Assembly (NCBI GenBank): GCA_002309255.1
Contig: DBXI01000076.1
Span: 30,946 to 94,945, forward strand
DNA from: Bacteroidales bacterium UBA1216
GTDB lineage: Bacteria; Bacteroidota; Bacteroidia; Bacteroidales; Paludibacteraceae
Direction of reading: 5' to 3'
Length of the DNA: 64,000 bases
Part shown: positions 4,861-58,036 of the stretch, one piece after another
Numbering within the stretch: the stretch's first letter is position 1
Layout of the letters: each line of letters opens with the position of its first letter
Notes under the pieces: generated by a model
The model's input: the letters and a program-made list of their open reading frames with translations, nothing else
Databases searched by the model: none
What the model was told of the DNA's origin: nothing
Translations under genes and position numbers: made by a program

Positions 4861-4868
4861 AAAAAAAT

Positions 4869-5387
4869 ATGAAACGACTATTTGCATTGATAATTAGCGC
4901 TTTATGTCTCGCGGGAGCGTGCGGAGCGAAAGATAATACCGTCGCCTACGTCGATATGGCATACATTTTGAAGAATTTACCACAGTACGAGACGGCTAAT
5001 GAGCAGTTGACGATGATCGCCAAGCGCTGGCAAAAGGAGATCGATGCGCTGGAGCAGGAGGTAAGGGTGATGACCACGAACTACCAAACGGAGCAGATCT
5101 TCCTATCCGAAGACATGCGTCATCGGCGCGAGGAAGAGATCCTGGCGAAAGAGCAGGAGGCTATCGAGCTGAAGCGTAAGTACTTTGGCGAAGCAGGCGA
5201 ACTGGTGAAGAAGCGTGAAGCGCTACTCAAACCTATACAGGATGAGATATATGCCGCCATCCAGGAGCTGGCTAACGAGAAGCACATCGATGTGGTGAAA
5301 GACCGCTCGTCCGACCCGGGGCTGCTATATATGTCATCGAAGCTGGACTACTCGGATCAACTGCTGCAAAAACTCGGCGCAAAATAA
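4869..5387 (+). CDS. OmpH/Skp family periplasmic chaperone
   Basis: Signal peptide plus coiled-coil, Gln/Glu/Lys-rich 172-aa protein directly after bamA. Confidence 0.85.
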   Translation: MKRLFALIISALCLAGACGAKDNTVAYVDMAYILKNLPQYETANEQLTMIAKRWQKEIDALEQEVRVMTTNYQTEQIFLSEDMRHRREEEILAKEQEAIELKRKYFGEAGELVKKREALLKPIQDEIYAAIQELANEKHIDVVKDRSSDPGLLYMSSKLDYSDQLLQKLGAK

Positions 5388-5449: not shown

Positions 5450-5944
5450 ATGAAGAAATCATTAGTAATCATTGCTGTGCTGCTCGTATCGCTGGCAGCC
5501 AATGCACAGAAGTTCGGTTATGTTAACACGCAAGAGTTGTTCGTTCTTATGCCCGAGCTCAAGGATGTTCAGGCTCGCATGGATAGCTTGAACAAGCAAT
5601 ACGAAAACATGCTGATGCAGATGCAGGAGGAGTATCAGAAGAAACTCCAAGATTATCAGCAGAAGCAGAACACCCTGCCCGATGCAATGCGTCAGATCCA
5701 GGAGGAGGAGCTGTACTCGATGCAACAGCGTCTGCAGACCACCTATCAGGCTGCTCAGCAGGATATAGAGCAGAAGCGCGGTGAGTACCTCAAGCCCGTG
5801 AACGAACGAATGGCCAAAGCTATTCAGGATGTAGGTGCCGAAAACAAATATACGTACATCTTCGACTCTGCAGCTACCGTATATATCGCGCCCGAGGCGG
5901 ACAACGTGATGCCGCTGGTGAAGACGAAACTGGGCATCAAGTAG
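5450..5944 (+). CDS. OmpH/Skp family periplasmic chaperone (second copy)
   Basis: Signal peptide MKKSLVIIAVLLVSLAANAQ and an OmpH-like coiled coil. Tandem ompH pair is typical of Bacteroidetes. Confidence 0.85.
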   Translation: MKKSLVIIAVLLVSLAANAQKFGYVNTQELFVLMPELKDVQARMDSLNKQYENMLMQMQEEYQKKLQDYQQKQNTLPDAMRQIQEEELYSMQQRLQTTYQAAQQDIEQKRGEYLKPVNERMAKAIQDVGAENKYTYIFDSAATVYIAPEADNVMPLVKTKLGIK

Positions 5945-6084: not shown

Positions 6085-7452
6085 ATGGAACAAATACAAT
6101 CTTTACTACGTGACAAGACTTGGGCACGTTGGACAGTGCTCGTGCTTGTGGCATCGATGATGTTCTTCGCATACATGTTCGTGGACATCTTGTCGCCACT
6201 GGCGTCATTGCTGAACGATACACTGGGTTGGGATCAGGGCGTGTTTGGCACGTATGCAGCTGGTGAGTACCTGCTGAACGTGTTCGGATTCCTGATCATC
6301 GCCGGTATTATCCTGGACAAGATGGGTGTGCGCTTCACCGGCCTGCTCAGTGCCTCGCTGATGGTAATCGGTGCGGCAATCAAGTACTGGGGTATATCGT
6401 GGGCGGATGCTAACACCGTAAGTTGGCTTAACTCGTGGTGGACAACGATGCCAGGTTCGGCTAAGCTGGCTATGTTCGGCTTCATGATCTTCGGCTGCGG
6501 CGCGGAGATGGCTGGCACAACGGTAAGCAAGATCCTCGCCAAGTGGTTCAAAGGCAAGGAGATGGCACTGGCTATGGGGCTGGAGATGGCTATCGCACGT
6601 CTGGGCGTGTTTGCCGCCATGTGGCTCTCGCCGATGTTCAGTTTGCACTTTGCAGTCAACGGCACGAACTCTGTGGTAGCACCGCTGCTGTTCTCCGCTC
6701 TGCTGCTCGTGATAGGCCTCTTGAATTTCTTCGTGTTCACGATTATGGACAATAAGTTCGACAAGCAACTCGTAGCTATCGGAGAAGCACCTGCCGTACA
6801 TGATCCGGAGGATGAGTTCCATGTGAGCGATCTGGGGAAGATCTTCTCGAGCAAGATGTTCTGGATCGTGGCTCTGCTGTGCGTGTTGTACTACTCGGCT
6901 ATCTTCCCCTTCCAGCGCTTTGCTACGAACTTCCTAGAGGAAACACTGAGCATCTCGAACGCTGAGGCTGCGGGGCTATTCAAGTGGTTCCCGATATTGG
7001 CGATGGTGCTGACGCCGTTCTTGGGCGCGTTCATCGACTACAAGGGCAAGGGCGCATCGATGATGATGTTAGGCGCTGTGATCATGATAGCCTGCCACTG
7101 CATCTTCGCCTTCGTGTTGCCCGCATATCCGAGCAAGGTGCTGGCGCTGATCACAATCCTCGTGCTGGGCGTGAGCTTCTCGCTGGTGCCGGCATCGATG
7201 TGGCCGAGTGTGCCTAAGATCATCGACGAGAAGGTGCTGGGTTCGGCTTACTGCCTGATCTTCTGGGTGCAGAACGTAGGCTTGTGCCTTGTGCCTCTGC
7301 TTATAGGCAAGCTGCGCGTGGCTACCGATGGCTATCTGGTGCCGATGATCGTGTTCGCATCATTCGGCGTACTGGCCTTCTTCCTGAGTCTGGCACTTAA
7401 GGTTGAGGATAAGAAGAAAGGTTACGGCCTCGAATTGCCCAACAAGAAATAA
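6085..7452 (+). CDS. MFS transporter
   Basis: About 12 predicted TM segments with an MFS-like loop (DKMGVRFTG). The ATG at 6085 is preferred over the track's GTG at 6067. Confidence 0.8.
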   Translation: MEQIQSLLRDKTWARWTVLVLVASMMFFAYMFVDILSPLASLLNDTLGWDQGVFGTYAAGEYLLNVFGFLIIAGIILDKMGVRFTGLLSASLMVIGAAIKYWGISWADANTVSWLNSWWTTMPGSAKLAMFGFMIFGCGAEMAGTTVSKILAKWFKGKEMALAMGLEMAIARLGVFAAMWLSPMFSLHFAVNGTNSVVAPLLFSALLLVIGLLNFFVFTIMDNKFDKQLVAIGEAPAVHDPEDEFHVSDLGKIFSSKMFWIVALLCVLYYSAIFPFQRFATNFLEETLSISNAEAAGLFKWFPILAMVLTPFLGAFIDYKGKGASMMMLGAVIMIACHCIFAFVLPAYPSKVLALITILVLGVSFSLVPASMWPSVPKIIDEKVLGSAYCLIFWVQNVGLCLVPLLIGKLRVATDGYLVPMIVFASFGVLAFFLSLALKVEDKKKGYGLELPNKK

Positions 7453-16597: not shown

Positions 16598-16696
16598 TCG
16601 AGACTGCTTCGAGACTTTATCGAGGTTTTACCGAGGTTTTGTCGAGACCACCCTAGACAATACTCGAGACATCTTCGAGACATTCTCGAGACTATC
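16598..16696 (+). repeat. 9 x 11-bp phased array with 7-bp core TCGAGAC
   Basis: Unit starts are at 16598, 16609, 16620, 16631, 16642, 16653, 16664, 16675 and 16686, exactly 11 bp apart. Cores read TCGAGAC, TCGAGAC, TCGAGGT, CCGAGGT, TCGAGAC, CTAGACA, TCGAGAC, TCGAGAC, TCGAGAC, with variable 4-nt spacers. Confidence 0.95.
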
Positions 16697-16713: not shown

Positions 16714-17646
16714 ATGAGAGTACTCATCGACAAATACATTCCGTTTCTGCAAGGCGTCTTAGACAGCTTTGTCGAGACTTGTTTCCTTGAACCTGAGGCC
16801 ATCACGCCTGACACGGTTCGGGATGTCGATGCGCTCATTTTGCGCACGCGCACGCGTTGTGACGCAGCTCTCCTATCCGGCAGCCGCGTGCAGTTCATCG
16901 CCACCGCCACCATCGGTACCGATCACATCGACCTCGACTACTGCCGCGAGCACAATATCCGCGTTGTCAGTTGCCCGGGCTGCAACGCACAAGCCGTCTG
17001 CGATTATTTAGAAGAAGTCCTCAACGAATCTTCAAAGCTTCAAATACTCAAATCTTCAAATACTCCTACCATCGGAGTAGTTGGAGTAGGACATGTCGGC
17101 TCATTGGTGGCTAAGATGGCTGAGCGCCGAGGCATGAATGTCGTCCTCAACGATCCGCCGCGCGGACTCCACGGAAACGTCACCACCTGCGACATCATCA
17201 CTTTCCACACGCCGCTCACACGTGAAGGACTCTATCCGACCTATCACCTCTGCGACACGGACTTCCTCGCCCGCTGCAAACATGGCGCACTCATCATCAA
17301 TGCCGCACGAGGAGGAGTGGTGGACGAACAGGCGCTACTCTGTAGCACGCAGCCGTTCGTCATTGATACCTGGGAAAACGAACCTCGTATCAATCCTGAA
17401 GTCCTCAGTCGCGCCTCGCTCGCATCTATGCACATAGCTGGATACTCCATCCAAGGAAAGCGCAACGCATCGCTGATGAGCCTCAACGCCTTGTGCAAGC
17501 ACTTCGACTTGCCGCCACTTACGCTCAATAGCGAGCAACTGCCGCAAGGCGATAACAACCCCGGATGGCTCAAACGCATATCCGACCAACTCAAAGCCAA
17601 CCCCGAACAATTTGAACAACTACGCAAAGAATATAAATTACGATAA
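16714..17646 (+). CDS. pdxB: 4-phosphoerythronate dehydrogenase (short form)
   Basis: D-2-hydroxyacid dehydrogenase fold with a PdxB-like N-terminus (IDKYIPF..., ATIGTDHIDLDYC) and NAD motif GVVGVGHVG. 310 aa, so it lacks the enterobacterial C-terminal dimerisation domain. Confidence 0.8.
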   Translation: MRVLIDKYIPFLQGVLDSFVETCFLEPEAITPDTVRDVDALILRTRTRCDAALLSGSRVQFIATATIGTDHIDLDYCREHNIRVVSCPGCNAQAVCDYLEEVLNESSKLQILKSSNTPTIGVVGVGHVGSLVAKMAERRGMNVVLNDPPRGLHGNVTTCDIITFHTPLTREGLYPTYHLCDTDFLARCKHGALIINAARGGVVDEQALLCSTQPFVIDTWENEPRINPEVLSRASLASMHIAGYSIQGKRNASLMSLNALCKHFDLPPLTLNSEQLPQGDNNPGWLKRISDQLKANPEQFEQLRKEYKLR

Positions 17647-25850: not shown

Positions 25851-28259
25851 TTATAGCCCCAACCTCACGCATCCGCGTATACCCCATAGCGGTGTGCTCG
25901 GGTCGTCTCGATGCGTGAGTCGCCAGATAGAGTACACATCAACCAGTCGCAGAATGTTGCCTATACCCACTCCCACTTCCACATACGGCACACTGAGCGT
26001 CTGCAGCCCTTCGGTGAACGAATGTCCGCTGCCTAATCCGCCGTAGGCTATCTTGCACTCCACGAGTTCCCTCAGATGCAAGAAGCGCACACCCGGGATC
26101 AGATTGAACAGCACACCCTGTCCGTTCCACTCGGCCTGCAGGGTGAGGTACTTGTCGGTGGCGTATTGGTGGCTGTTCATCAGGGTGAAACGGTAGGTGT
26201 CGTATAAGTACGACTGGTTGCCGTCCATGATCTCCAGCAGCGGATAGGGCACCTTGCCTATCACGATGCCGGCTGAGGCTACATACGTCAGTCTGCCGCC
26301 CACATTGAACGACACCTGCTGTCGCACCGTGGCGTTCAGCTTGGCGTACATATGGTAGTTATTGTCGCCCACGTAAGCAAAGCTCCCCACCTCTGCACCG
26401 ATGAATACCGTAGGCTGCTGGCTGTACAAGTGTATCCGCTGCATGTACATATCTACTGCCCGTTCGTGCCAACTCAATCGCACTATGCCTGTCAGGCTGG
26501 TGAATCGGAACGGGTCAAATGGGTACGAAGGCTGAGGCACGATGGCGTTCGTGCGCAGGTCGCGCTCCGAAACATACGACGGATCGAGTCGCCCTACCTT
26601 GACGCGGATGGTCGTCTCTATGCCCTCGCGCCAGTCAGCATCATAGTTCATAAGGATCGCGCGCTCGCGTATGCCTGTGTGACGTGCGGTTGTGTTGTTG
26701 TAAGGTAGGCCGTCCAGCAGACTCGGAATGAAGTCCATCTCCCGTGCACCGAATCCGTTCTCGCGAGGTAACTTGTCGAACACCGAGGTCTCCGAATAGA
26801 CGTAGTGATCCTCGTATCGCAGCTGTAACCAGTGCCGACGCTCGGTGGGCATCAGTATAGCTACTTGTCCCATCCATTTGAACTTCTTGTCGCCCCAGCC
26901 GTAGCCGAAGTACCCATCCAGACTCACGTGCTTCCATAGCCTCTCGTTCGTGTGCAACGGCAGACCGAAGTACAGCCCGTGCGCCTTGTTGCAGTGGAAT
27001 ATGTCGGTGATCTTTCCTATCTCTATTGCCCCGCCGATGGGTATGTAGCCGCTGGTGGCGATGGTCAGTCCCCATTTAACGACCTTGACAATCGGCAGAT
27101 CATCTATCCTGTTCATCGCATCCATCGTTGCGGAGTCCGCCACATGGCTCAGCGACGGCTCATTTACCGCATCGGTGGCAACATATGTAAGCTTGCGCTC
27201 CACCACCATACTCGGGAACACATGCGAGGAGTCCGCCTTCACCGCAAAATCCAGCGCCATGGTCATCCGCTCCGTCTGCAAGATGTTTTGTTCGTTGAAC
27301 AGCTGCTTGATGTGCATGCCATGCAAGTAGTTCAGGTTCACCTCTCGCGGCACCTTGGCTTCCATGCGCCGCAGCGCCCAGGTGCCCGAGTCCACCTCCA
27401 TCTCGCCGTTGAAGGTGGGGTAGTAACCGTTCTTCGTCCTATAGTGCAGCAGATAACGCTTGCTCGCCGCCGTGCTGTCGCCACCCGTGCTGTCCGCCAG
27501 AAAGTAGTCGTAGTACACTGCACCGCTCTTGGCCAATGGACTGACGAACGCTGTCCCGCACAGACTCACGTTGTTGCGGTAGAAGTCCGCATAACTGCCT
27601 GTCAGTGACAAGATAGGCTCGTAATCAGTCTCGGTGAGCACGCAGCGGGTCTGTTGTTGCGTCAGCGGCGACAGGTAGCCTCCACTCAGACGTGTGTTGC
27701 CTACCGACAGGTAGAGCGGCAGAAACATAGAACTGTCCTCACGCGTCACGATACCTTCCTTCAGGTTCTTCCACAGAAAACGCTCCAGATGCTTGGCGCG
27801 TATGTCGGATAGGTAGAGATGCTTGTACTCCTCGTATCGGTCGGTGGCCTGTCCGCCCAACTGACGGTCGTTCTGCTCGCGGTGGTTGCGCACCTGATCG
27901 ATGATTGCCATGGCGGCGTTGTCATCAGGTAGCACCTGTATCTCCCTCAGGCTCTCCACCCTCTCCACCATCGCTACGTCGATACCTGACTGCATGCCTG
28001 GCATGATTTCGAACCGCTGCTTGCGGTAGCCCACGGCGGAGATAACGAGCGTGTGCCGCTCCTCCATGTTCGTGCGGATCATGAACAGCCCCTCATCATT
28101 GGTGCTCGCGCCTACCTTGGTGCCCTTCAGTACAACGTTCGCAGCCGGTATAGGCTCGCCCGTCTCGGCGTTATACACCTCACCGATCACGATCGTCTCC
28201 GCCGCCGTCAGCCGACCGATGCTGCAGAGCAAGAGCACTATGTAAGCAAGGCGTTTCAT
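25851..28259 (-). CDS. CarboxypepD_reg-like domain + DUF5686-like outer membrane protein
   Basis: Signal peptide, N-terminal GEVYNAETGEPIPAANVVLKGTKVGASTNDEGLFMI (carboxypeptidase-regulatory-like), and a large beta-rich C-terminus. About 800 aa, as in DUF5686 proteins. Confidence 0.6.
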   Translation of the reverse strand: MKRLAYIVLLLCSIGRLTAAETIVIGEVYNAETGEPIPAANVVLKGTKVGASTNDEGLFMIRTNMEERHTLVISAVGYRKQRFEIMPGMQSGIDVAMVERVESLREIQVLPDDNAAMAIIDQVRNHREQNDRQLGGQATDRYEEYKHLYLSDIRAKHLERFLWKNLKEGIVTREDSSMFLPLYLSVGNTRLSGGYLSPLTQQQTRCVLTETDYEPILSLTGSYADFYRNNVSLCGTAFVSPLAKSGAVYYDYFLADSTGGDSTAASKRYLLHYRTKNGYYPTFNGEMEVDSGTWALRRMEAKVPREVNLNYLHGMHIKQLFNEQNILQTERMTMALDFAVKADSSHVFPSMVVERKLTYVATDAVNEPSLSHVADSATMDAMNRIDDLPIVKVVKWGLTIATSGYIPIGGAIEIGKITDIFHCNKAHGLYFGLPLHTNERLWKHVSLDGYFGYGWGDKKFKWMGQVAILMPTERRHWLQLRYEDHYVYSETSVFDKLPRENGFGAREMDFIPSLLDGLPYNNTTARHTGIRERAILMNYDADWREGIETTIRVKVGRLDPSYVSERDLRTNAIVPQPSYPFDPFRFTSLTGIVRLSWHERAVDMYMQRIHLYSQQPTVFIGAEVGSFAYVGDNNYHMYAKLNATVRQQVSFNVGGRLTYVASAGIVIGKVPYPLLEIMDGNQSYLYDTYRFTLMNSHQYATDKYLTLQAEWNGQGVLFNLIPGVRFLHLRELVECKIAYGGLGSGHSFTEGLQTLSVPYVEVGVGIGNILRLVDVYSIWRLTHRDDPSTPLWGIRGCVRLGL

Positions 28260-29140
28260 CTATTAGCCGGATGATATTTGAGTACAGCCTGACGCAGGTC
28301 TTGTATGTCGAGATGCGTATAGATCTCTGTTGTTGTGATGCTTTCGTGCCCGAGCATCTGTTGTATGATCCTCAGATCAGCACCATTCTGCAGCAGATGG
28401 GTGGCAAACGAATGCCGCAGCGTGTGGGGTGAGATTGTCTTGCGTATACCCGCCTCGGCGGCGAGGCGCTTCACTATGGTGAAGATCATCGCGCGCGTCA
28501 GCCCACGGCCGTAGCGGTTAAGGAACGCGTAGTCCTTGTACTCGGGCTTGATATCTAGCCGCGACCGATCCTCTAGCCAGTAGCCGAACCACTCCGTTGC
28601 CACCGGCGAGATAGGCACCAGTCGTTGCTTGCTGCCCTTGCCCTCAATCAGCATAAAGCCCTCGTTCAGATAGACGCGGCTCAGCGGCAGCGTCGTCAGC
28701 TCAGACACACGCAACCCCGAACCGTATAGCATCTCAATGATCGCGCGGTTGCGATGACCCTCCGGCGACGACAGATCGATAGCCGCTATCATCTGGTCAA
28801 TCTCTTCCACAGTCAGTACCTCAGGCAGGTGCTGCTCGCGCTTGGGCATCTCGATCAGCTCAGAGGGGTCTTGGTCAATGTAGTTGTGGTAAACCAGAAA
28901 ACGATAGTAGTTGCGCACGCCCGACAGGATACGTGCCTGCGATCGCATGTTATCCACGCCGCTGAGCACCTCCACCACGAACCGGTGCAGATCGTCAGCC
29001 GTGGCGTGTATCATATCTAAACCTTTCTTCTCGCAGAACGAGCGGAGCTTGTCCAGATCTTGCTCGTAGGCCGCCACCGAGTTGGCAGATAGACCTTTCT
29101 CCAACTTCAGGTACGTATGATACTCTTTCTCCTTGTTCAT
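28256..29140 (-). CDS. xerD: site-specific tyrosine recombinase XerD
   Basis: N-terminal SAM-like domain (LEKGLSANSVAAYEQDL). Catalytic R..HxxR..Y region (HTLRHSFATHLL..., LGHESITTTEIYTHL). Confidence 0.85.
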   Translation of the reverse strand: MNKEKEYHTYLKLEKGLSANSVAAYEQDLDKLRSFCEKKGLDMIHATADDLHRFVVEVLSGVDNMRSQARILSGVRNYYRFLVYHNYIDQDPSELIEMPKREQHLPEVLTVEEIDQMIAAIDLSSPEGHRNRAIIEMLYGSGLRVSELTTLPLSRVYLNEGFMLIEGKGSKQRLVPISPVATEWFGYWLEDRSRLDIKPEYKDYAFLNRYGRGLTRAMIFTIVKRLAAEAGIRKTISPHTLRHSFATHLLQNGADLRIIQQMLGHESITTTEIYTHLDIQDLRQAVLKYHPANR

Positions 29141-33855: not shown

Positions 33856-34701
33856 ATGCAAGATAATACGATTCCCCTGTTAGACTGCCCGAAAGATTAC
33901 CTGATTGGTGATGCCAGCGGCAAGATCATGAACGAATACGGCCGTTTTCCGTGTAAGATACAATGTACGGTTTTTGCTTTTTTGGCTCGAGGTACAGCCA
34001 AGGCGACCATCAATGTCACACAGTACGATTTCCATCAGAACGATGCACTGTTGCTGGAGTCTGGTTCGTTTCTGCTGATTCACGAGTTCTCGGAGGATGC
34101 GTTGGTGTACTACGTACTGTTCAGCTCATCGTTCATGGAAAAGAACACGTTCCAGACTCGCCTTACTGCCAATGCGATGCATATGCATTCGCCTATTGTT
34201 ACGCTCACAGCTGAGCAGTCCGAAATCATGGTTAACACCTGTAAACTGCTGATTGATGCGCTGAACTGCACTCCGTCGCTGCTGAACACCGAAAAGATGG
34301 TGAATGTGTACAACATCTTCCAGATGACATTCAACGGATTCTTCCGTCAGCAATCCGAGACGACTCTTCGTCCGCAGGATAGGAAGAACGAGATATATTA
34401 CGAATACTGCAACCTTGTACTCAAGCACTATCACGAGTGGCATCATGTATCGAAGTACGCTGACATGATGCACCTTACTCTTCCGCATTTGTGTGCCACC
34501 ATCAAACAGGTGAGTGACAAGACGGCTGGCGATCTGATCGTTGAGGCCATTATCACCGATGCCAAAGCCAAGCTCAAACTGACGAACTTGCAGGTGAAGG
34601 AGATAGCGCTATCTCTTGGTTTCGATAATGTGGCGTTCTTCAACCGATTCTTTAAGACACATGCAGGGGTGACCCCCAAGGCATACAGGTTGATGGTGTA
34701 G
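33856..34701 (+). CDS. AraC family transcriptional regulator
   Basis: C-terminal double HTH (KEIALSLGFDNVAFFNRFFKTHAGVTPKAYR) and N-terminal cupin-like sensor region. Confidence 0.88.
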   Translation: MQDNTIPLLDCPKDYLIGDASGKIMNEYGRFPCKIQCTVFAFLARGTAKATINVTQYDFHQNDALLLESGSFLLIHEFSEDALVYYVLFSSSFMEKNTFQTRLTANAMHMHSPIVTLTAEQSEIMVNTCKLLIDALNCTPSLLNTEKMVNVYNIFQMTFNGFFRQQSETTLRPQDRKNEIYYEYCNLVLKHYHEWHHVSKYADMMHLTLPHLCATIKQVSDKTAGDLIVEAIITDAKAKLKLTNLQVKEIALSLGFDNVAFFNRFFKTHAGVTPKAYRLMV

Positions 34702-34702
34702 C

Positions 34703-34764
34703 GGAAAGTGAAAAGTGAAGTAGTCGTTCGAGTGTAACGAGATAAGAAAAGTGAAAGGTGAAAG
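34703..34764 (+). repeat. two heptad blocks (GGAAAGT|GAAAAGT|GAAGTAG ... GAAAAGT|GAAAGGT|GAAAG) flanking a small hairpin; fills the AraC-miaB spacer
   Basis: Read directly. The second block ends exactly at the miaB ATG (34765). Confidence 0.85.
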
Positions 34765-36415: not shown

Positions 36416-36580
36416 ATGGCTAAGAAGAAGTCAAAGAAAAATGTCCCTGTTCTTCCGCAGGTGGTACAACAACCGATGCCTGTACCGGAAGTGGAAGAAG
36501 AGTTGTTCGACCTGAGCAATCCCGATGAGTTTCGCAAAGCCTTTATTGCCTCAGAGATATTGGGTAGGAAATACTGTTGA
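36416..36580 (+). CDS. small ORF, 54 aa (MAKKKSKKNVPVLPQVVQQPMPVPEVEEELFDLSNPDEFRKAFIASEILGRKYC)
   Basis: ATG at 36416, TGA at 36578-36580. Below the track cutoff. Non-repetitive composition with a basic N-terminus and acidic core. The only ORF filling the gap upstream of greA. Confidence 0.45.
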   Translation: MAKKKSKKNVPVLPQVVQQPMPVPEVEEELFDLSNPDEFRKAFIASEILGRKYC

Positions 36581-36613
36581 AATGTGAAAGGTGAAAATTG
36601 AAAGATAAAAGGA
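36579..36613 (+). repeat. heptad array GAAATGT|GAAAGGT|GAAAATT|GAAAGAT|AAAAGGA in the greA leader
   Basis: Read directly. It starts inside the stop codon of the 54-aa ORF. Confidence 0.9.
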
Positions 36614-37557: not shown

Positions 37558-37583
37558 TAGTTGAATATTGAAAATTGAAAGTT
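37556..37583 (+). repeat. heptad array GATAGTT|GAATATT|GAAAATT|GAAAGTT
   Basis: Starts within the HIT stop codon. Lies in the mreB leader. Confidence 0.9.
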
Positions 37584-40126: not shown

Positions 40127-41968
40127 ATGACTAACGATCCGCACAGCCGAAGATCAATTATCATCATGGGATCCGTGGTGCTTGTTGTGCTGGTGTTTAT
40201 CAGCCGACTGTTCTGGTTGCAGGTCATTGACCAATCGCAGAAAGCCAAGGCAGACAGCAATGCACTGCTTCGACAAGTTATTTATCCTTCGCGCGGATTG
40301 ATATACGATCGTAATGGCGAACTGCTTGTATTCAATCAACCTATCTACGAGGTCACCCTTATTTTCCAAGAGATGCGCCACGGCTTTGACACGATTGCGT
40401 TCTGCCAGTGTCTGGGTATAGACAGCCTGGAATTCGAGCAACGCATCAGCGCTATCCGCGACCGCAAGCGCAACCGCGGTTTCTCGACCTATACGCCGCA
40501 GATCTTCATGGCTCAACTCAGCAAGCAGGATGTGGCATCGCTTCGTGAGGTGTCGTACAAGTTTCCCGGCGTAGGTATCCGCAAGCGCACGCTCCGCGGT
40601 TACACATATCCTTATGCCGCGCATATCTTAGGATCGGTGGGGGAGGTGTCGCAGGCAGACATTGATCGAGACAAGTATTACCAGGCGGGCGATTATTCCG
40701 GTCGCGACGGCTTGGAGCGTACCTATGAGCAGCGCTTGCGTGGCGAGAAAGGTGTGGAGGTAATCATGCGCGATTCGCGCGGACGCATTCAGGGGTCCTA
40801 CCATGACGGCGCGGAGGATGTAGATGCCATCACAGGTACCGATCTGCATTTGTCGCTCGACATACGCCTGCAGCAGTTAGCAGAAGAGTGTCTGCATGGC
40901 AAAGTAGGCAGTGTAGTGGCACTTGAACCTGCCACCGGCGAGATCCTTGCCCTGGCATCTTCGCCGACCTGGAATCCGGAGATACTGGTGGGCAAGCAAC
41001 GTTCCACGCAGTACAATATTCTGCTCAACGACCCCACCAAGCCGCTCTTCAACCGCGCCACACAAGCCACCTACCCGCCTGGATCAACGTTCAAAACGAT
41101 TCAGTCCGTTGTGTGCCTGCAAGAAGGGGGGATCACACCGCGCACGACCTATCCTTGCTCGGGTCCCGGATCTTCGCCTATCAAGTGCACACACCACCAT
41201 GGTTCACCGGTTAGTCTGCTTAACGCCATAGAGCAAAGTTGCAACCCCTACTTCTGGTGTGCGTTCCGCGACATGCTTCAGAAAGAGGGATACGGCGACA
41301 ACAATGCGGTCTTTCGCAAGCGTTTTAACCTTTGGCGCGACGATGTGATGAAGTTCGGATTAGGTCAACGATTTGAGAATACGGATCTTGGCGAACAGTC
41401 AGCTGGAAAGATCCCTCTTGAGCGAGAGTTCAACCGCACGTATGGCGAGAAAGGCTGGAAAGCCATCACCATCCGCTCGCTCAGTATAGGTCAGGGCGAA
41501 ATCCTCGTCACGCCGCTGCAATTGGCAAATCAGGCCGCAACGTTGGCAAACCGCGGCTATTATATCACACCTCATTTGAACACCGAATTGACGAATAGCC
41601 CCGAGCTGCGCCATGAGACAGATATGGATTCTACGTGGTTCAATCTTGTGGCGCAAGGTATGCATCAGGTGATGACCGCCGGTACAGGCCGATGGTACAA
41701 CATCGACTCGCTGCAGATGTGTGGCAAGACTGGTACTGTGCAGAACCCGCATGGCAAGGATCATGCTATCTTCATCGGTTTTGCGCCGATGGATGCACCG
41801 AAGATTGCCGTAGCGGTAGTGGTGGAAAACGCCGGATTTGGCGCTACATGGGCGGCACCGGTTGCTTCGCTGATGATAGAACAGTACCTCACCGACACTA
41901 TCCGCCGCAAGCATATATACAACAAGATGGTTAATGCCGTCCTCGAACACCCAAGCGAACAACAATGA
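40127..41968 (+). CDS. mrdA: penicillin-binding protein 2 (elongasome transpeptidase)
   Basis: PBP dimerisation domain plus transpeptidase motifs STFK (PPGSTFKT), SCN (EQSCNPYF) and KTGT (CGKTGTVQ). The ATG at 40127 is preferred over the TTG at 40115. Confidence 0.9.
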   Translation: MTNDPHSRRSIIIMGSVVLVVLVFISRLFWLQVIDQSQKAKADSNALLRQVIYPSRGLIYDRNGELLVFNQPIYEVTLIFQEMRHGFDTIAFCQCLGIDSLEFEQRISAIRDRKRNRGFSTYTPQIFMAQLSKQDVASLREVSYKFPGVGIRKRTLRGYTYPYAAHILGSVGEVSQADIDRDKYYQAGDYSGRDGLERTYEQRLRGEKGVEVIMRDSRGRIQGSYHDGAEDVDAITGTDLHLSLDIRLQQLAEECLHGKVGSVVALEPATGEILALASSPTWNPEILVGKQRSTQYNILLNDPTKPLFNRATQATYPPGSTFKTIQSVVCLQEGGITPRTTYPCSGPGSSPIKCTHHHGSPVSLLNAIEQSCNPYFWCAFRDMLQKEGYGDNNAVFRKRFNLWRDDVMKFGLGQRFENTDLGEQSAGKIPLEREFNRTYGEKGWKAITIRSLSIGQGEILVTPLQLANQAATLANRGYYITPHLNTELTNSPELRHETDMDSTWFNLVAQGMHQVMTAGTGRWYNIDSLQMCGKTGTVQNPHGKDHAIFIGFAPMDAPKIAVAVVVENAGFGATWAAPVASLMIEQYLTDTIRRKHIYNKMVNAVLEHPSEQQ

Positions 41969-43419
41969 CCAGAAACAGTATTATATCCGGTATAGATTGG
42001 TGGACGATAGCCCTCTTTCTTGTTATTGCCCTATTCGGCTGGCTGAACGTGTATGGTGCCAGTTACACCTTTGATCAGACTTCGCCGTTCGACCTGAGTA
42101 ACCGCGCCGGCAAGCAGTTCTTGTGGTTCGGAATAGCATGCGTGCTGGGGCTCGCTGTGCTGTTCATAGAGGGACGAACGCATGAGGTTATTGCGTATCT
42201 ACTGTATGCGTTCTGGATAGTGGTGCTGCTTATTACGCCTTTCTTGGCGCATGACACCAAGGGATCAATGTCTTGGATTGATCTTGGGCCGCTTAAGTTC
42301 CAGCCTGCGGAGTTGGCTAAGATGATCACCGCCTTGGCTTTAGCTAAGTACATGGGGCGTTTTGATTATCGTGTGCGCTCATGGCGCGACTTGGTGGTTC
42401 CGTTTGTGCTGCTGGCTTTGCCTGCGGGAATCATCATGATCTGGCAGAGCGAAACAGGTTCAGCACTGGTGTTTGCTTCGTTCCTGATCATGTTCTACCG
42501 CTTCGGAATGTCAGGGTATGTGCTGACAGGTGGATTGTCGTTTGCGCTACTGTTCATCCTATCTATACGTTTCGGCGAGGTACCTTTGCCATGGGGCTCG
42601 GGTAGTGTGGGCGTGCTGTTGTGCTATTTGGTACTTCTGGCAGTGATCGTGGGATTCATGTTACTACATGAGCGGGATTTGAAGAGCACACTTATCCTTT
42701 GCTGTGTTGTTATTTTGGCCTATGCAGCAGGGCTGATTGTTAATATATGGTGGACTGTGAATTTCAACCTTGTTTCTCTCATCGCCCTGGTGCTTATCCT
42801 TCTGTACTTCACGGGAGTTGTACTCTACCGCCGCCGTTTTATCATGTTACTTGTAACAGGATACACGGTGCTTGCGTTGCTGTTCTGCGAGGCATGTACG
42901 ATTGTGTTCAACAAGGTGCTGCAGCCCCACCAACGCACGCGTATAGAGGTGCTGCTTGGCCTGAAGGATGATCCTGCAGGTGCCGGCTATAACGTCAATC
43001 AGTCACTCATAGCTATCGGTTCGGGACAGTTCACCGGAAAGGGTTTCTTGAAGGGAACACAAACCAAGCTTCGCTTTGTGCCTGAGCAGGACACTGACTT
43101 CATCTTCTGTACCGTAGGCGAAGAGTGGGGCTTCTTGGGGTCAGCAGGTTTACTAATTGTGTATCTGATCTTTATCTTGCGACTGATTTATATAGCAGAA
43201 CGTCAGCGCGACAACTACTCACGAATCTATGCTTATTGTGTGGCGGGTATCTTCTTCTTCCATTTGACGATTAATGTGGGGATGGTGCTTGGTTTGTTGC
43301 CCGTGATAGGTATTCCACTGCCGTTCTTCAGTTACGGCGGTTCATCGATGATCAGTTTCACGCTGTTGCTGGCAATTCTTCTCCGTTTGGATGCCGAACG
43401 ACTCAGCAAGTGGCAGTAG
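41965..43419 (+). CDS. rodA: SEDS peptidoglycan glycosyltransferase RodA
   Basis: FtsW/RodA/SpoVE motifs (PAELAKM, EQDTDFIF, PLPFFSYGGSSM). Follows mrdA with a 4-nt overlap. Confidence 0.88.
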   Translation: MTRNSIISGIDWWTIALFLVIALFGWLNVYGASYTFDQTSPFDLSNRAGKQFLWFGIACVLGLAVLFIEGRTHEVIAYLLYAFWIVVLLITPFLAHDTKGSMSWIDLGPLKFQPAELAKMITALALAKYMGRFDYRVRSWRDLVVPFVLLALPAGIIMIWQSETGSALVFASFLIMFYRFGMSGYVLTGGLSFALLFILSIRFGEVPLPWGSGSVGVLLCYLVLLAVIVGFMLLHERDLKSTLILCCVVILAYAAGLIVNIWWTVNFNLVSLIALVLILLYFTGVVLYRRRFIMLLVTGYTVLALLFCEACTIVFNKVLQPHQRTRIEVLLGLKDDPAGAGYNVNQSLIAIGSGQFTGKGFLKGTQTKLRFVPEQDTDFIFCTVGEEWGFLGSAGLLIVYLIFILRLIYIAERQRDNYSRIYAYCVAGIFFFHLTINVGMVLGLLPVIGIPLPFFSYGGSSMISFTLLLAILLRLDAERLSKWQ

Positions 43420-43434
43420 CAAAAAGTGGAGTTA

Positions 43435-43489
43435 CTCTCGATGATGTCTCGATGAAGTCTCGATATTGTCTCGACAAAGTCGGACAAAA
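43435..43489 (-). repeat. 5 x 11-bp phased array, same TCGAGAC core family as 16598-16696 but in inverted orientation
   Basis: Plus strand reads ctctcgatgat|gtctcgatgaa|gtctcgatatt|gtctcgacaaa|gtcggacaaaa. Unit starts are at 43435, 43446, 43457, 43468 and 43479. The reverse complement gives TCGAGAC cores. Confidence 0.95.
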
Positions 43490-43517
43490 ATACGGGTATT
43501 ATGTAAAATAGCCTATT

Positions 43518-44249
43518 ATGGCAACAATAAATCAAAGTGACATATTTCAGCGCACAGAACTGCTGATAGGCGAGTCAGGCATGGCTCGCGTGGCAACTGT
43601 TCGCGTTATCTTGTTCGGCGTGGGCGGCGTAGGCTCGTGGTGCGCCGAGACACTCGTTCGCTCGGGCATAAGGCATCTAACAATGGTGGATAGCGATGAG
43701 GTAGTACCATCTAACATCAATCGCCAGCTCATGGCTACCACCGCTACTATCGGTCGACCTAAGGTGGAAGTGATGCGCGAACGGCTGCTGCTGATCAATC
43801 CCGAGGCCGACATCACTGCAATCGCCACGCGCTACAATGCGGATACGGCGGATAGTTTCTGCCTCGCGGATTATGACTATGTGGTCGATGCTATCGACTC
43901 GTTCAATGATAAAGCGTTGCTCATTAATACGGTAACCCGTCTTCCGAACGTGCAACTCTATTCAAGTATGGGCGCTGCGCGCAAACTTGATCCCACGCGC
44001 ATTCGTATAGCCGAGTTCAACAAGGTGCAGGGGGATCCTCTGGCGCGCACTTTGCGCCGCAAGCTCAAGCAAATAGGCGTTTTCCCCGCGCGTAAGTTCA
44101 TGTGCGTATATAGCGATGAGATTTTACCGAACGCTCACGAAACAGATGATCGCGCTAACGGCACCATGGCGCATATAACGGCCGTCTTCGGAAATATGCT
44201 CGCTTCGCTGGTGATTAACAATGCTTTGCATGTATCTTCTGCCGAGTGA
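43518..44249 (+). CDS. tcdA: tRNA threonylcarbamoyladenosine dehydratase (ThiF/E1-like)
   Basis: ILFGVGGVGSW Rossmann motif, DSDEVVPSNINRQ, 243 aa, TcdA/CsdL-like. Confidence 0.82.
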   Translation: MATINQSDIFQRTELLIGESGMARVATVRVILFGVGGVGSWCAETLVRSGIRHLTMVDSDEVVPSNINRQLMATTATIGRPKVEVMRERLLLINPEADITAIATRYNADTADSFCLADYDYVVDAIDSFNDKALLINTVTRLPNVQLYSSMGAARKLDPTRIRIAEFNKVQGDPLARTLRRKLKQIGVFPARKFMCVYSDEILPNAHETDDRANGTMAHITAVFGNMLASLVINNALHVSSAE

Positions 44250-47239: not shown

Positions 47240-48607
47240 ATGAATGTAAAGCTGCATATAAACACAACTATCCTGCGGGAGTACTTACCATACTATCGTC
47301 GGAATCTTATTGTGGCTTTTCCCGTCATGCTCACGCAGCTTGGCGCTGCATTGGTCGGCCTGATTGATACGATCATGGTAGGTCACTACAGTACGACTGA
47401 TCTGGCCGCGGTGAGTTTTGCTAATGGTGTGTTCTTTACTATCATGGTGTTTGCTATGGGTGCTGTGATGGGCGTGACGCCACTGGTGGGACAAGCCTAT
47501 GTACAGCACAAAGATGAACGCGTGGCGGCACTGCTGCTTAATGGGTTGTGGTTCACGTTGCTTGTAGGAGGAGTGACCTGCGCGGTGCTGGGTATATGTG
47601 TGCCGCTGATGGACAATATGGGACAAGATCCTGAAGTGGTGAAGGCTGCACGTCCGTACCTGATAACGCGCATCATAGGTATGCTGCCTTTCTTGCTGTT
47701 CTGCCTAGAGAAGCAGTTCATGGAGGGTTTGGGTAATACTATCGTAGCAATGATCGTCACCGCGGGCATCAATCTGCTGAATATATTGCTTAACTGGGTG
47801 TTTATCTTCGGTCATTGGGGTGCGCAGGCTATGGGGGCGGCGGGCGCAGGTTTGGCTACGATGGTTGCATGGATACTGCTGCCAATAGTGTACCTTATAT
47901 GCATCTTGCGCCGTGAAAAGTGGCGTAAGTATCTGGTGCTATGTCGTGACGGATTATCCGATCGCGTCATGGTGCGCGAGCTCTTTCGGGTAGGTACACC
48001 CATCGGCTTGCAGACCACGATGGAAACGGTGCTCTTCACCTTGTCGTTCATCATGGTGGGGTGGATCAACAAGGAAGCTCTGGCAGCCCATCAAGTCACG
48101 AACCAGATAGCTGATTTTGCATTCATGCTCTCGCTGGGCATCAGCTCTGCCACCACCATACGCGTATCGCACCAATACGGCTTGAGGGATATGCATGCCA
48201 CCAAGATGGCGGCAAACGCCAGTGTTCATCTCATCCTGCTGATGAATACCATAGGTGCGTTGCTGATGATCAGCTTGAGGCACTACTTGCCCTATCTCTT
48301 CACTAATGACGAAGTGGTGGTGGCACTTGCTTCGCAGCTACTGATCTTCGCCGGCCTGCTCCAGTATGCTGATGGCCTGCAATGTGTTGGTGCTGGGATG
48401 CTACGTGGTGTGACGGATGTGAAGGCTCCGATGTGGATAACGGTCTTCACCTACGTGGTGGTAGCACTTCCGCTCGGATATATACTTATGTTCCCCGCCG
48501 ATTTAGGTGCTGTAGGTATGTGGATCAGTTTTGTTGTGGCACTCACCATTGCCGCCATTGCTTTCCACCTCCGCTTCCGCTGGCTCTTCCGTAACTTGCA
48601 TCGATAG
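47240..48607 (+). CDS. MATE family efflux transporter
   Basis: 12 TM segments with a NorM-like N-terminus (LIVAFPVMLTQLGAALVGLIDTIMVGH). The ATG at 47240, just after the priA stop, is preferred. Confidence 0.88.
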   Translation: MNVKLHINTTILREYLPYYRRNLIVAFPVMLTQLGAALVGLIDTIMVGHYSTTDLAAVSFANGVFFTIMVFAMGAVMGVTPLVGQAYVQHKDERVAALLLNGLWFTLLVGGVTCAVLGICVPLMDNMGQDPEVVKAARPYLITRIIGMLPFLLFCLEKQFMEGLGNTIVAMIVTAGINLLNILLNWVFIFGHWGAQAMGAAGAGLATMVAWILLPIVYLICILRREKWRKYLVLCRDGLSDRVMVRELFRVGTPIGLQTTMETVLFTLSFIMVGWINKEALAAHQVTNQIADFAFMLSLGISSATTIRVSHQYGLRDMHATKMAANASVHLILLMNTIGALLMISLRHYLPYLFTNDEVVVALASQLLIFAGLLQYADGLQCVGAGMLRGVTDVKAPMWITVFTYVVVALPLGYILMFPADLGAVGMWISFVVALTIAAIAFHLRFRWLFRNLHR

Positions 48608-50171: not shown

Positions 50172-51641
50172 ATGCAACTATCAGAACTTTTCACACAAGC
50201 CACGGGCAAGCCGGCAGGCGAGCAGACTTCTCTGACCGCATCAGGGAGCAACCGGCGTTATTTTCGTATATGGAGCGAGGATAAGCAGGTGACGCTCATC
50301 GGCGTAGAAGGTACGTCGCATGACGAGAATCATGCTTTCCTTATGATGGCTGCGCACTTTGCCGGCCAGGAACTGAATGTTCCACGCGTGCTCGCTGTCA
50401 GTGAAGACGAGATGCTATATGTGCAGGAAGACCTGGGTAATACGCTGCTATTTGACTACATAGCCGAGGGGCGAAAAACCGGTGTGTTCTGCGAACGTGA
50501 GAAAGTGATGCTCAGAAAAACCATACGTGCGTTAGCACGCTTTCAACTGAAGGCGGCAGAGAATTTTGACTTCAACGTATGCTACCCGCAGCCGGAGTTC
50601 AACTTGAGGAGTATCCGCTGGGATCTGAACTACTTCAAGTACTGCTTCCTTAAAGCAACGGGGCTTGAGTTCCAGGAGGATAAACTGGAAAATGAGTTTG
50701 AGCGCCTGGCATATATCCTGCTTCAGCAGAAGCAGATGAATGCATTCATGTACCGTGACTTTCAGAGCCGTAACGTGATGGTTGTTGAAAGTCAAAAGTC
50801 GAAAGTCGAAAGCGATAGAGAGTTGGAGCCGTACTTCATCGACTTCCAGGGCGGAAGGCGTGGCCCCATATACTACGATGTCGCCTCGTTCCTGTGGCAA
50901 GCTAAGGCGAACTTCCACGATGAGCTGCGCCACGAACTCATCGAGGAATATCTAGATGAACTATGTAAGTACATAGAGGTTGACAAGAAGGAGTTCTACG
51001 CCACGCTCCGGCACTTCGTGCTCTTCCGGACGATGCAGGTGCTCGGTGCTTATGGCTTCCGCGGCTACTTTGAGAAGAAACCCCACTTCTTGCAATCTAT
51101 ACCCTTTGCTATCGAGAATCTCCGCCGTCTGCTCAAAGACGCAGCGGATGACTACCCTTACCTGATCGAGGTGCTGCACGAGATGACCGAGATGAAACAG
51201 TTCAAGGAGGTGAATGTTAGGAAACCGCTGGTGGTGAAGGCCTATTCGTTCTCGTTCAAGAAAGGAATCCCTGCGGATGATAGCGGCAATGGTGGCGGCT
51301 TTGTGTTCGATTGCCGTGCGGTGAACAACCCCGGTAAGTACGAGCGCTATAACCACTACACCGGTATGGATGAGCCGGTAATCAAGTTCCTGGAGGAGGA
51401 TGGCGAGATCTTCCCCTTCCTGGATGCAGCCTACCGATTGGTGGATGCCAGCGTCAAGCGCTACAAGGATCGTGGGTTCACCAGTCTCATGGTCAGCTTC
51501 GGCTGCACGGGCGGACAGCACCGCTCTGTTTATGCCGCCGAGAAGATGGCAGAACACATCAACGAGAAATTCGGCGTCGAGGTGCGCCTCATTCACCGCG
51601 AACAGAACGTGGAACGCACACTCCCGGAGAAAGAAAAATGA
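50172..51641 (+). CDS. fusion protein: AmgK-like anomeric sugar kinase (APH fold) + RapZ C-terminal-like domain
   Basis: N-terminal half has YRDFQSRNVMV (catalytic loop) and IDFQGGRRGPIYYDVASFL (DFQ..GP..YD motif of AmgK-type kinases). C-terminal half has FVFDCRAVNNPG and SFGCTGGQHRSVYAAEKMAEHI (RapZ/YhbJ C-domain signature GCTGGQHRSV). Confidence 0.75.
   Translation: MQLSELFTQATGKPAGEQTSLTASGSNRRYFRIWSEDKQVTLIGVEGTSHDENHAFLMMAAHFAGQELNVPRVLAVSEDEMLYVQEDLGNTLLFDYIAEGRKTGVFCEREKVMLRKTIRALARFQLKAAENFDFNVCYPQPEFNLRSIRWDLNYFKYCFLKATGLEFQEDKLENEFERLAYILLQQKQMNAFMYRDFQSRNVMVVESQKSKVESDRELEPYFIDFQGGRRGPIYYDVASFLWQAKANFHDELRHELIEEYLDELCKYIEVDKKEFYATLRHFVLFRTMQVLGAYGFRGYFEKKPHFLQSIPFAIENLRRLLKDAADDYPYLIEVLHEMTEMKQFKEVNVRKPLVVKAYSFSFKKGIPADDSGNGGGFVFDCRAVNNPGKYERYNHYTGMDEPVIKFLEEDGEIFPFLDAAYRLVDASVKRYKDRGFTSLMVSFGCTGGQHRSVYAAEKMAEHINEKFGVEVRLIHREQNVERTLPEKEK
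50787..50814 (+). repeat. in-frame heptad array GAAAGTC|AAAAGTC|GAAAGTC|GAAAGCG inside the kinase CDS
   Basis: Encodes ESQKSKVES, located between the catalytic loop and the DFQ motif. Confidence 0.9.
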
Positions 51642-51643
51642 CA

Positions 51644-51671
51644 AAATTGCAAATGATTAAATTGTAAATGA
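51644..51671 (+). repeat. heptad array AAATTGC|AAATGAT|TAAATTG|TAAATGA
   Basis: Fills the spacer after the kinase stop. The last unit contains the ATG at 51668. Confidence 0.85.
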
Positions 51672-52414: not shown

Positions 52415-53334
52415 GAGTAATTATCAATCCCAAATCGGGTAAAAAAGCTTACCGTCGGCAACGAATGTACCTGTGGAACCTATTGCGCGAGCGCCATATA
52501 CCTTATGAGTTCCGCGTAACCAAATATGCTGCTCATGCTACGGAGTTGGCGCGCGAACTGGTAGAGGATTTTGGCTGCGACGAGATCCTTGTTATAGGCG
52601 GCGATGGCACATTGTCAGAAACACTGAACGGAATCATGCGCGCCAAGATCTCTGCAGAGCAACGTAGGAAGATCCAACTCGGTCTGATGCCTCGTGGCAC
52701 AGGCAACGATTGGGGCAGGTACTGGAACCTGACGAAGAACTACCGTGATGCTATTGAGCGTTTCCTGTCGGGCGAAGGCCATCCGCTGGATGTGGGATGC
52801 GTCACGTACTGGCGCAATCATATTGAGCACCATCGCTACTTCATCAACTCCGTAGGATTCGGTGTCGATCCGCTGTGTTGCCAGAAAGCTGAGAAACTCA
52901 AGTACTACCTCGGCTCACATCACGTGAACTACCTGTTCGGATTGATCGGAGCTATCATGGAGCAGAAACCGATACCCATGCAACTGGTGGTGGATGGAGA
53001 GGTGCTGGTGCACGAAGCCTTGTTCACCATGAATGTAGGCAATGGCCCATATTCAGGAGGTGGTATCAAGCAGAATCCTGATGCCGACCCACAGGACGGC
53101 GTATTCCATGGGATGTTCGTGTGCAAGCCTACACTCATACAAATCATCCGTGCATTGCCTAACCTATTCAATGGCAAACTGACCGAACTTCCGTTCATCC
53201 ATGCCTATGTGGGCAAGGATATCCGTATGGAGACCGAAGAACATTTGCTCTTTGAGGCTGATGGCATATTGCAGAATGTGATGGGACCATGTGAGGTGCA
53301 TTGTATCCATCATGCTTTACAATTTAAAGTATAG
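52408..53334 (+). CDS. diacylglycerol/lipid kinase family protein (YegS/BmrU-like)
   Basis: IINPKSGKK..., ILVIGGDGTLSE DAGK catalytic motif, 308 aa. 7-nt overlap with the upstream gene. Confidence 0.82.
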   Translation: MLGVIINPKSGKKAYRRQRMYLWNLLRERHIPYEFRVTKYAAHATELARELVEDFGCDEILVIGGDGTLSETLNGIMRAKISAEQRRKIQLGLMPRGTGNDWGRYWNLTKNYRDAIERFLSGEGHPLDVGCVTYWRNHIEHHRYFINSVGFGVDPLCCQKAEKLKYYLGSHHVNYLFGLIGAIMEQKPIPMQLVVDGEVLVHEALFTMNVGNGPYSGGGIKQNPDADPQDGVFHGMFVCKPTLIQIIRALPNLFNGKLTELPFIHAYVGKDIRMETEEHLLFEADGILQNVMGPCEVHCIHHALQFKV

Positions 53335-53375
53335 AAAGGTGAAAGTTGAAAGGTGAAAATTGAAAGGTGGAAGAG
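53334..53375 (+). repeat. 6 x 7-bp array GAAAGGT|GAAAGTT|GAAAGGT|GAAAATT|GAAAGGT|GGAAGAG
   Basis: Starts on the last base of the lipid kinase stop codon and contains the candidate rsmH GTG start (53367). Confidence 0.95.
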
Positions 53376-54269: not shown

Positions 54270-54311
54270 ATGGTCAAATACATGATAAAATAGTAAATGT
54301 CTAAATGAGGA

Positions 54312-57974: not shown

Positions 57975-58036
57975 TTACATAGCCAAATGATTAAATAAAT
58001 GGCCAAATGGTAAATGACTAAATTGTAAATTACTTT

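Follow-up and report, generated by a model that had tools for sequence, protein, structure and literature searches.

A dispersed family of conserved 11-bp TCGAGAC arrays in Bacteroidales genomes, possibly a platform for head-to-tail binding of a protein

In the Pho boxes recognised by PhoB of E. coli and PhoP of Streptomyces, a 7-bp core is followed by a less conserved, A/T-rich part of 4 bp. Winged-helix protomers bind these units head to tail, complex operators may hold many of them, and the boxes replace the -35 region of phosphate-regulon promoters. The parC site of the ParR-parC system (plasmid R1) consists of ten 11-bp iterons, and the cyanobacterial STRR heptamers are dispersed, intergenic, lineage-specific short tandem repeats. 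The 'bind' repeats of plasmid pMV158 are tandem 11-bp direct repeats to which the oligomeric RepB protein binds cooperatively (PMC4753449). The targets of SARP regulators are direct heptamers, 5'-TCGAGXX-3', with 4-bp spacers (PMC6510168), their repeats are separated by 11 or 22 bp (PMC10936776), and the classical sites are made of 11-bp units (PMC10972967). A literature search for 11-bp repeats in Bacteroidetes found no paper, and a search with the motif itself returned primer sequences only.

In the present study, a 64-kb stretch of Bacteroidales DNA (the window) was analysed, in which two arrays share an 11-bp unit with the core TCGAGAC (Table 1). Array 2 takes up most of the 98-nt spacer between rodA and tcdA. 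On the minus strand it reads TCGAGAC three times and TCGAGAG once, with A/T-rich 4-bp spacers, and Tandem Repeats Finder reported a period of 11 at 43436-43474. Array 1 has six TCGAGAC units, and its remaining three read TCGAGGT, CCGAGGT and CTAGACA. An earlier reading of the window (the original prediction) had described the five units of array 2 and the identity of one of them to 16638-16648 in array 1; both were confirmed letter for letter, TTTGTCGAGAC being the reverse complement of unit 4.

The TCGAGAC strand is the plus strand for array 1 and the minus strand for array 2, so that the two are mutually inverted, both lying among co-directional plus-strand genes. This also bears out the prediction of two loci with one core, one period and opposite orientations. 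A search for at least three cores 11 bp apart, with at most two mismatches, returned these two loci and no third in the window, and the number of three-core stretches expected in the window from 100 dinucleotide-preserving shuffles was 0.00.

Table 1. Positions of the arrays, their surroundings and related features. Positions are those of the window unless an L number names another locus.
Feature	Position	Strand	Remarks
Array 1	16598-16696	+	nine in-phase units, same family as array 2; spacer between panC and the pdxB-like gene
Lone TTTGTCGAGAC	16768-16778	+	within the pdxB-like coding sequence, codons F-V-E-T
rodA (FtsW/RodA/SpoVE family)	41965-43419	+	upstream of array 2
Left spacer flank CAAAAAGTGGAGTTA	43420-43434	+	directly 3' of the rodA stop codon
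Array 2	43435-43489	-	five 11-bp units; four good heptamer cores and one degenerate
Array 2, unit 1	43435-43445		+ reads ctctcgatgat; - reads ATCA-TCGAGAG
Array 2, unit 2	43446-43456		+ reads gtctcgatgaa; - reads TTCA-TCGAGAC
Array 2, unit 3	43457-43467		+ reads gtctcgatatt; - reads AATA-TCGAGAC
Array 2, unit 4	43468-43478		+ reads gtctcgacaaa; - reads TTTG-TCGAGAC
Array 2, unit 5 (degenerate, GTCGGAC)	43479-43489		+ reads gtcggacaaaa; - reads TTTT-GTCCGAC
-7-box-like TATTTTTG	43485-43492	-	overlaps degenerate unit 5; from the TANNTTTG scan
Right spacer part	43490-43517	+	runs to the tcdA start codon
tcdA (ThiF family)	43518-44249	+	downstream of array 2
Start-codon-proximal repeat spacers	34746-34764, 36578-36612, 37561-37580, 53334-53373
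Further start-codon-proximal repeat spacers	51636-51671, 54270-54311, 57996-58030
Composite module	L242 3392-3496; L043 ~4780-4920; L106 ~5530-5670	- (L043, L106)	three to four TCGAG-type 11-mers, CGTATCCCACC and a palindrome
Chitinophagaceae ~170-bp element	L006, L017, L019, L026, L030, L049, L078, L092, L104, L108		on the C-rich strand in 10 of 10
Anaerolineae-like family contigs	L105, L156, L158, L184, L190, L195, L207, L210, L217, L231

A single copy of TTTGTCGAGAC also lies within the pdxB-like coding sequence. At this position all 12 homologs examined from other species read FAEV, LAEV, LAQV or YADV, indicating that the coding match to the array unit is lineage-specific. Three lineage-specific nucleotide changes made the coding 11-mer match, and it is possible that they arose by gene conversion from array 1, about 80 bp upstream.

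Outside the window, one genome from each of 185,579 species was scanned for exact matches to three cores 11 bp apart, which yielded 104 arrays; about 0.3 would be expected in random sequence by our own arithmetic. By record title, 28 of the 104 belong to Paludibacteraceae or uncultured Bacteroidales MAGs, with at most five in a genome (RUG12984 and UMGS451 have five apiece, RGIG1209 two). About ten were in Chitinophagaceae and six in Sphingobacteriaceae, and the remainder were mostly perfect 11-bp microsatellites of unrelated taxa, often of high G+C content. The arrays are thus a dispersed family, as had been predicted over a local accident, with the same heptamer and period at 28 loci in related Bacteroidales MAG species.

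The family also has a common spacer. In Bacteroidales the spacers are 71% A/T compared with a background of 51%, with the consensus nTTA and the preferences H-T-T-R: G is avoided at position 8, T stands at positions 9 and 10 in 60% of units, and at position 11 A is found in 60% and G in 19%. In Chitinophagaceae the spacer is [C/T]TTA, and the arrays of other phyla had no preference.

Almost all Bacteroidales arrays are intergenic, in spacers between co-directional, convergent (L053, L064) or divergent (L010, L089) genes, and they are sense about as often as antisense relative to the genes that flank them. Such mixed orientation is what would be expected of a site on double-stranded DNA, and it agrees with the argument of the original prediction against a strand-specific role in mRNA. 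The flanking genes elsewhere (PPIase, TatC, Lgt, DapB, signal peptidase, PyrK and others) are unrelated housekeeping genes. A Pfam scan of about 40 flanking genes at 20 loci revealed no common function, and none of the scanned flanks held a phosphate-related gene. The proposal that the arrays mark the regulon of one factor, whose members would share a function, is therefore not supported, given the unrelated neighbours, the mixed types of spacer and the absence of promoter geometry at the window arrays.

Some of the array copies clearly stem from copying. In UMGS451, near-identical three-unit arrays with the same order of units and the same spacers occur at five non-orthologous loci. A composite module, in which the array is followed by CGTATCCCACC, a palindrome (CTATATATAC-N3-GTATATATC) and CCCGTGATTTTGA, was found in three species at loci that are not orthologous to one another; one of the three loci (L242) is the panC-pdxB spacer orthologous to array 1. 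In Chitinophagaceae (Paraflavitalea, Niastella) there is a dispersed element of about 170 bp with a conserved leader, five TCGAGACCTTA-type units and a C-rich tail of 11-bp periodicity. Anaerolineae-like contigs carry a multi-copy family of their own, GGGTCGAG...TCGAGACCTTATCGAGACCCTGTCGAGACC, so the TCGAGACCTTA unit also occurs in a distant phylum. At L046, a TCGAGAC array with other 11-mers on its flanks is 580 bp away from the gene of an IS200-like Y1 (HUH) transposase (6174-6629).

The window arrays could be old, partly decayed copies of a dispersed copy-and-paste module, with 11-bp direct repeats that would bind a Rep/HUH/transposase-like protein, as they do at rolling-circle origins. The five UMGS451 arrays, the array-palindrome module, the Chitinophagaceae element that begins with five TCGAGACCTTA units, and the transposase gene at L046 are consistent with such an origin, which we nevertheless regard as unlikely for the arrays of the window. 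The two window arrays share no flanks, no inverted repeat was found near array 2, and there are no terminal repeats or target duplications. The Pfam scan of the window detected no rep, par or HUH gene. Both arrays are moreover stable at the orthologous sites of sister species, under purifying selection (see below). A link to phages or plasmids was rejected, as a search of 2.9 million viral contigs gave only four matches.

The orientation of the arrays was also compared with GC skew. After removal of the effect of gene orientation, the TCGAGAC strand was the C-rich strand in Bacteroidales (r = -0.048 ± 0.011; 22 of 28 loci negative) and in Chitinophagaceae (r = -0.089 ± 0.012; 10 of 10 negative), with r = +0.007 ± 0.008 in other phyla. 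Both window arrays are skew-negative and lie on either side of a change of skew sign near 34 kb. Among new, non-orthologous loci in Bacteroidales-like metagenome contigs, which were short and of uncertain taxonomy (an overfitted k-mer classifier), only 5 of 11 were negative. The association is therefore suggestive: strong in the genome set but not replicated in the 11 metagenome loci, a replication-oriented element was rejected as an explanation and kept as a lead. A C-rich TCGAGAC strand would also suit a mobile element that uses ssDNA, and the failed replication counts against that origin equally.

In the form of this lead that goes furthest, TCGAGAC-N4 arrays would be Bacteroidota-wide and oriented by replication, with GTCTCGA on the G-rich leading strand, and would be read or spread by a fork or ssDNA protein, for example a HUH/Rep-like enzyme or a polar factor that interacts with the fork or a translocase. 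The window arrays, inverted about the skew switch at ~34 kb, would then be one instance. We consider this rather improbable, and less probable than a mobile origin. Should the association be borne out in closed genomes, however, the family would become one of the few replication-oriented sequence elements of bacteria.

On the plus strand the skew is above zero at 0-12 kb, falls below zero at 12-34 kb and is positive again at 34-64 kb; it is negative even over the plus-strand genes at 16-20 kb. Either an inversion of 22 kb or a switch like that at an origin could account for this pattern. An oriC at the switch was rejected, since no cluster of DnaA boxes (TTATCCACA) was found near the arrays or the switch; the one perfect box, at 48432, is in a coding region. 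The array unit TTATCGAGA differs from the DnaA box at two positions. A Chi- or KOPS-like oligomer was likewise rejected, as isolated copies of TCGAGAC show no enrichment and no preferred orientation in the window.

Homologs of the ThiF-family gene downstream of array 2 carry the name tRNA threonylcarbamoyladenosine dehydratase. The homologs of TcdA and of the PdxB-like protein come from uncultured gut and rumen Bacteroidales, those with names being labelled Paludibacteraceae. The gene order greA-HIT-mreB-mreC-mreD-mrdA-rodA-tcdA is syntenic in relatives. Bacteroidetes-type -7 boxes (TANNTTTG) mark where several transcription units of the window begin (for example 15665, 33801, 36221, 44341 and 50116), but neither the rodA-tcdA spacer nor that between panC and the pdxB-like gene has one on the plus strand, from which we infer that both arrays are internal to operons.

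Neither array has a TANNTTTG box downstream of it in the TCGAG direction, a sigma-70 scan gave weak matches at the window arrays (9 of 12 at most), and no terminator was found in the rodA-tcdA spacer. The minus-strand TATTTTTG box would start an antisense transcript through array 2 in the TCGAGAC direction. The box is not preserved in L003, the sister species, has no TTTG at the -33 distance, and would be a weak promoter at best. A role as promoter or terminator was rejected on these grounds.

It follows from the co-directional genes and the missing promoter that the window arrays are almost certainly transcribed, and a role in the RNA deserves consideration. A periodic UCGA in the polycistronic transcript could bind a protein or set processing, stability or re-initiation downstream; as TCGA is palindromic, either orientation would give one UCGA per 11 nt, and the syntenic operon context would suit such a function. 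The conserved flanks of the palindrome are, however, asymmetric (GAC versus GUC), yet the orientation is opposite in the window and mixed over the 28 Bacteroidales loci, two of which lie between convergent genes. Rfam covariance models, applied at their gathering scores, had no match in the window and only one, to a tRNA, in 18 related loci, and with folding z-scores of -1.4 to -2.1 for the arrays a structured RNA was rejected. In addition, a period of 11 nt is meaningful on duplex DNA and not on RNA. An RNA element is accordingly quite improbable.

Most intercistronic spacers of the lineage are built from short sense-strand repeats, a point that speaks for a function in RNA. Many hold purine-/A-rich tandem heptamers (GAAAGGT, TGAAAGG) or AAATGA-type 7/8/15-mers immediately upstream of start codons (Table 1), and TGAAAGG arrays are present in syntenic positions in L109. 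These start-codon-proximal repeats may be translation-initiation enhancers in a clade that does not use Shine-Dalgarno sequences.

Tandem repeats are made everywhere in this lineage, and the mutational origin of the arrays is in that sense certain. The 284 kb of lineage sequence analysed is rich in repeats with periods of 7, 8, 9 and 11, which fill many spacers, period 7 being by far the commonest. Within the window, AATCACCTACT (5.2 copies, 453-509) forms another type of 11-bp direct-repeat array in the spacer between divergent genes at 389-752, and the complementary AGGTG follows its last unit. The linker of the PdxB-like protein contains AATCTTCA (4.4 copies, 17027-17061), an in-frame repeat of 24 nt (8 residues). 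The homolog P0122 has about four extra copies (SSNLQIFK), suggesting that tandem expansion also shapes coding sequence in the lineage.

Against this background of very high slippage, the arrays might be a neutral by-product, with a common core that is either coincidental or a seed prone to slippage. The varying copy number of the PdxB repeat is in keeping with this, and so are the unit numbers of close relatives at other loci of the family, observed among metagenome hits (six in L100 and four in L141, three in L061 and four in L152, and a difference between L093 and L167). Between sister species, the array 1 counterpart in L240/L241 has ten units instead of nine, which is one exact 11-nt indel, and units change in concert between species.

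The comparison with close relatives nevertheless argued strongly for constraint. Two further samples of this species (L001, L002) had an identical rodA-tcdA spacer. In the sister species (L003/L004), whose TcdA is 86% identical to that of the window, 85 of the 98 spacer positions (87%) were identical in L003 with no indels, compared with an identity of 0.576 at four-fold degenerate sites (n = 1607, 11 genes). The array 1 spacer was identical at 116 of 133 aligned positions in its sister species (L240/L241), with 0.59 at four-fold sites. The arrays have thus diverged by about 12%, and the four-fold sites by 41-42%. Another repeat-built spacer, 51651-51667, was only 24% identical between the window and the sister species, indicating that conservation of spacers is not automatic.

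Within array 2, all 28 positions of the good cores were unchanged in L003 and 3 of 16 spacer positions had changed; the other changes fell in degenerate unit 5 and in the right flank, while the left flank kept 14 of its 15 positions. Counted by hand over both arrays, sister species differed at 8 of 98 core positions and 11 of 56 spacer positions (chi-square about 4.4, also by hand), and both proportions are far lower than the ~42% found at four-fold sites. The cores of both arrays are therefore more constrained than their spacers, and the arrays are under purifying selection and are not neutral microsatellites.

The original prediction had allowed that a neutral explanation would suffice if these two were the only loci of the genome and were missing or unrelated at the syntenic position in sister strains, and array 2 was found at that position in both same-species samples and in the sister species, at constant length throughout. 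By our own arithmetic, two of the window's three period-11 arrays would share a 7-mer by chance with a probability of about 0.4%, and the spacers hold a position-specific consensus across loci and species. Slippage accounts for how the arrays arose but leaves their conservation unexplained, and a neutral minisatellite is disfavoured, with little probability left to it. Some of the conservation might nevertheless have a cause other than protein binding.

At larger distances the rodA-tcdA spacer becomes more variable. L109, with a TcdA about 75% identical, has three ACCTCGAT/ACCTCGGT 11-mers and the same GGACAAAAAT tail, and its left flank is still recognisable as AAAATGGAGTGAGAC. In reverse complement its units read TCGAGGT and CCGAGGT, which are variant units of array 1 in the window. 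L238/L239 (TcdA about 78%) have five or six ACCCCGACAAA 11-mers in this spacer. The spacer is an AAATAGT heptamer array in L233 and a TCAAATCT octamer array in L236, and it is reduced to 7 nt in L234/L235 and 22 nt in L110.

The 11-bp array at this position is thus homologous within a subclade, with units that change in concert, and elsewhere it can be replaced or dispensed with. The comparison with wider relatives gave a mixed picture, in that the subclade keeps an 11-bp array, but the heptamer core is not conserved beyond the sister species. Such drift of the core or replacement of the spacer suggests either that the function is dispensable or that specificity co-evolves.

A structural role, in which phased A/T tetramers every 11 bp would make the spacer curved or sensitive to supercoiling, with non-specific nucleoid proteins at most, would be independent of orientation and would fit both the A/T-rich spacers and the L238 (ACCCCGACAAA) and L109 arrays, which keep the period and an A-rich tetramer as the core changes, but it has little chance of being correct given that the cores are better kept than the A/T spacers between sister species, the reverse of what curvature predicts, and that one specific heptamer recurs across loci and species.

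We tentatively propose that the arrays are a platform for the head-to-tail binding of a sequence-specific protein, a reading we hold with slightly more doubt than confidence. Each unit would consist of a 7-bp recognition core (TCGAGAC, tolerating TCGAGGT and CCGAGGT) followed by the 4-bp A/T-rich spacer, so that successive cores would be one helical turn apart and hence on one side of the double helix. Binding of the protomers would be cooperative and head to tail, in the manner of winged-helix proteins of the OmpR/PhoB family and SARPs on 7+4 repeats. Units come and go by slippage or conversion, and selection retains them.

The output might be occupancy of the intercistronic spacer, serving as a roadblock or insulator, or the arrays might be an architectural or titration site. 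Classical activation is less likely, considering that the arrays are operon-internal, occur in either orientation and lack promoters. Protein binding, the type of protein and the consequence of binding are all inferred.

A cognate regulator close to the arrays was looked for and rejected. An AraC-family gene (33856-34701) was the only regulator gene in the Pfam-scanned window, and no gene for a SARP regulator, which combines an OmpR-type winged helix with a BTAD domain, was present among the scanned genes of its 64 kb. A tblastn search with PhoB, of limited sensitivity, covered the window and about 0.4 Mb of related loci and gave no OmpR-type winged helix. The AraC-family gene stays syntenic with the miaB-like/greA/mre cluster in L110, and a gene for an XerC/XerD-type tyrosine recombinase is located at 28256-29140.

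If the arrays are read by a protein, Bacteroidales would share a DNA grammar with actinomycete regulators of the SARP/PhoB type, used in a different place and in long runs. This would suggest that a major clade of the gut and rumen, for which no cultured model exists, has an uncharacterised level of control within operons or of chromosome architecture. In addition, the arrays provide a clean natural case of tandem repeats born by slippage and held by selection, and the concerted change of units between species makes co-evolution of a binding protein and its site directly testable.

Among the known systems, the SARP boxes of Streptomyces, targets of ActII-ORF4, DnrI and other OmpR-type activators with a winged helix, resemble the arrays in their direct TCGAGXX heptamers, 4-bp spacers, 11-bp period and single helical face. 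Four of the five units of array 2 and seven of the nine of array 1 are of the form TCGAGNN, and TCGAGAC, TCGAGAG and TCGAGGT all fit the SARP consensus. SARP sites have two to three repeats over the -35 region of an actinomycete biosynthetic-cluster promoter, with the 3' repeat 8 bp from the -10, whereas the window arrays have five and nine units, occur in housekeeping operons of Bacteroidales in either orientation, and have no such promoter. In array 2 the TCGAGXX heptamers are on the strand opposite to tcdA and point into the 3' end of rodA, and in array 1 nothing -10-like was found 8 bp past the last core.

Pho boxes share with the arrays the 7-bp core and the less conserved, A/T-rich 4-bp spacer; they differ in core sequence, in their -35 placement and in the physiological theme of the genes they flank. 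Plasmid iterons are likewise tandem 11-bp repeats, and the A/T palindrome 3' of the arrays in L242, L043 and L106 is origin-like, but the window arrays are chromosomal and lie between core genes, and neither a rep or par gene nor a hairpin is close to them. STRR repeats and bacterial VNTRs are also dispersed intergenic families that change size by slippage; the arrays are set apart from them by the helical-turn period, the core/spacer substructure and a conservation above that of synonymous sites. By analogy, the layout is thus one known from winged-helix operators, whereas its apparent setting, inside operons of housekeeping genes, is unprecedented among these systems.
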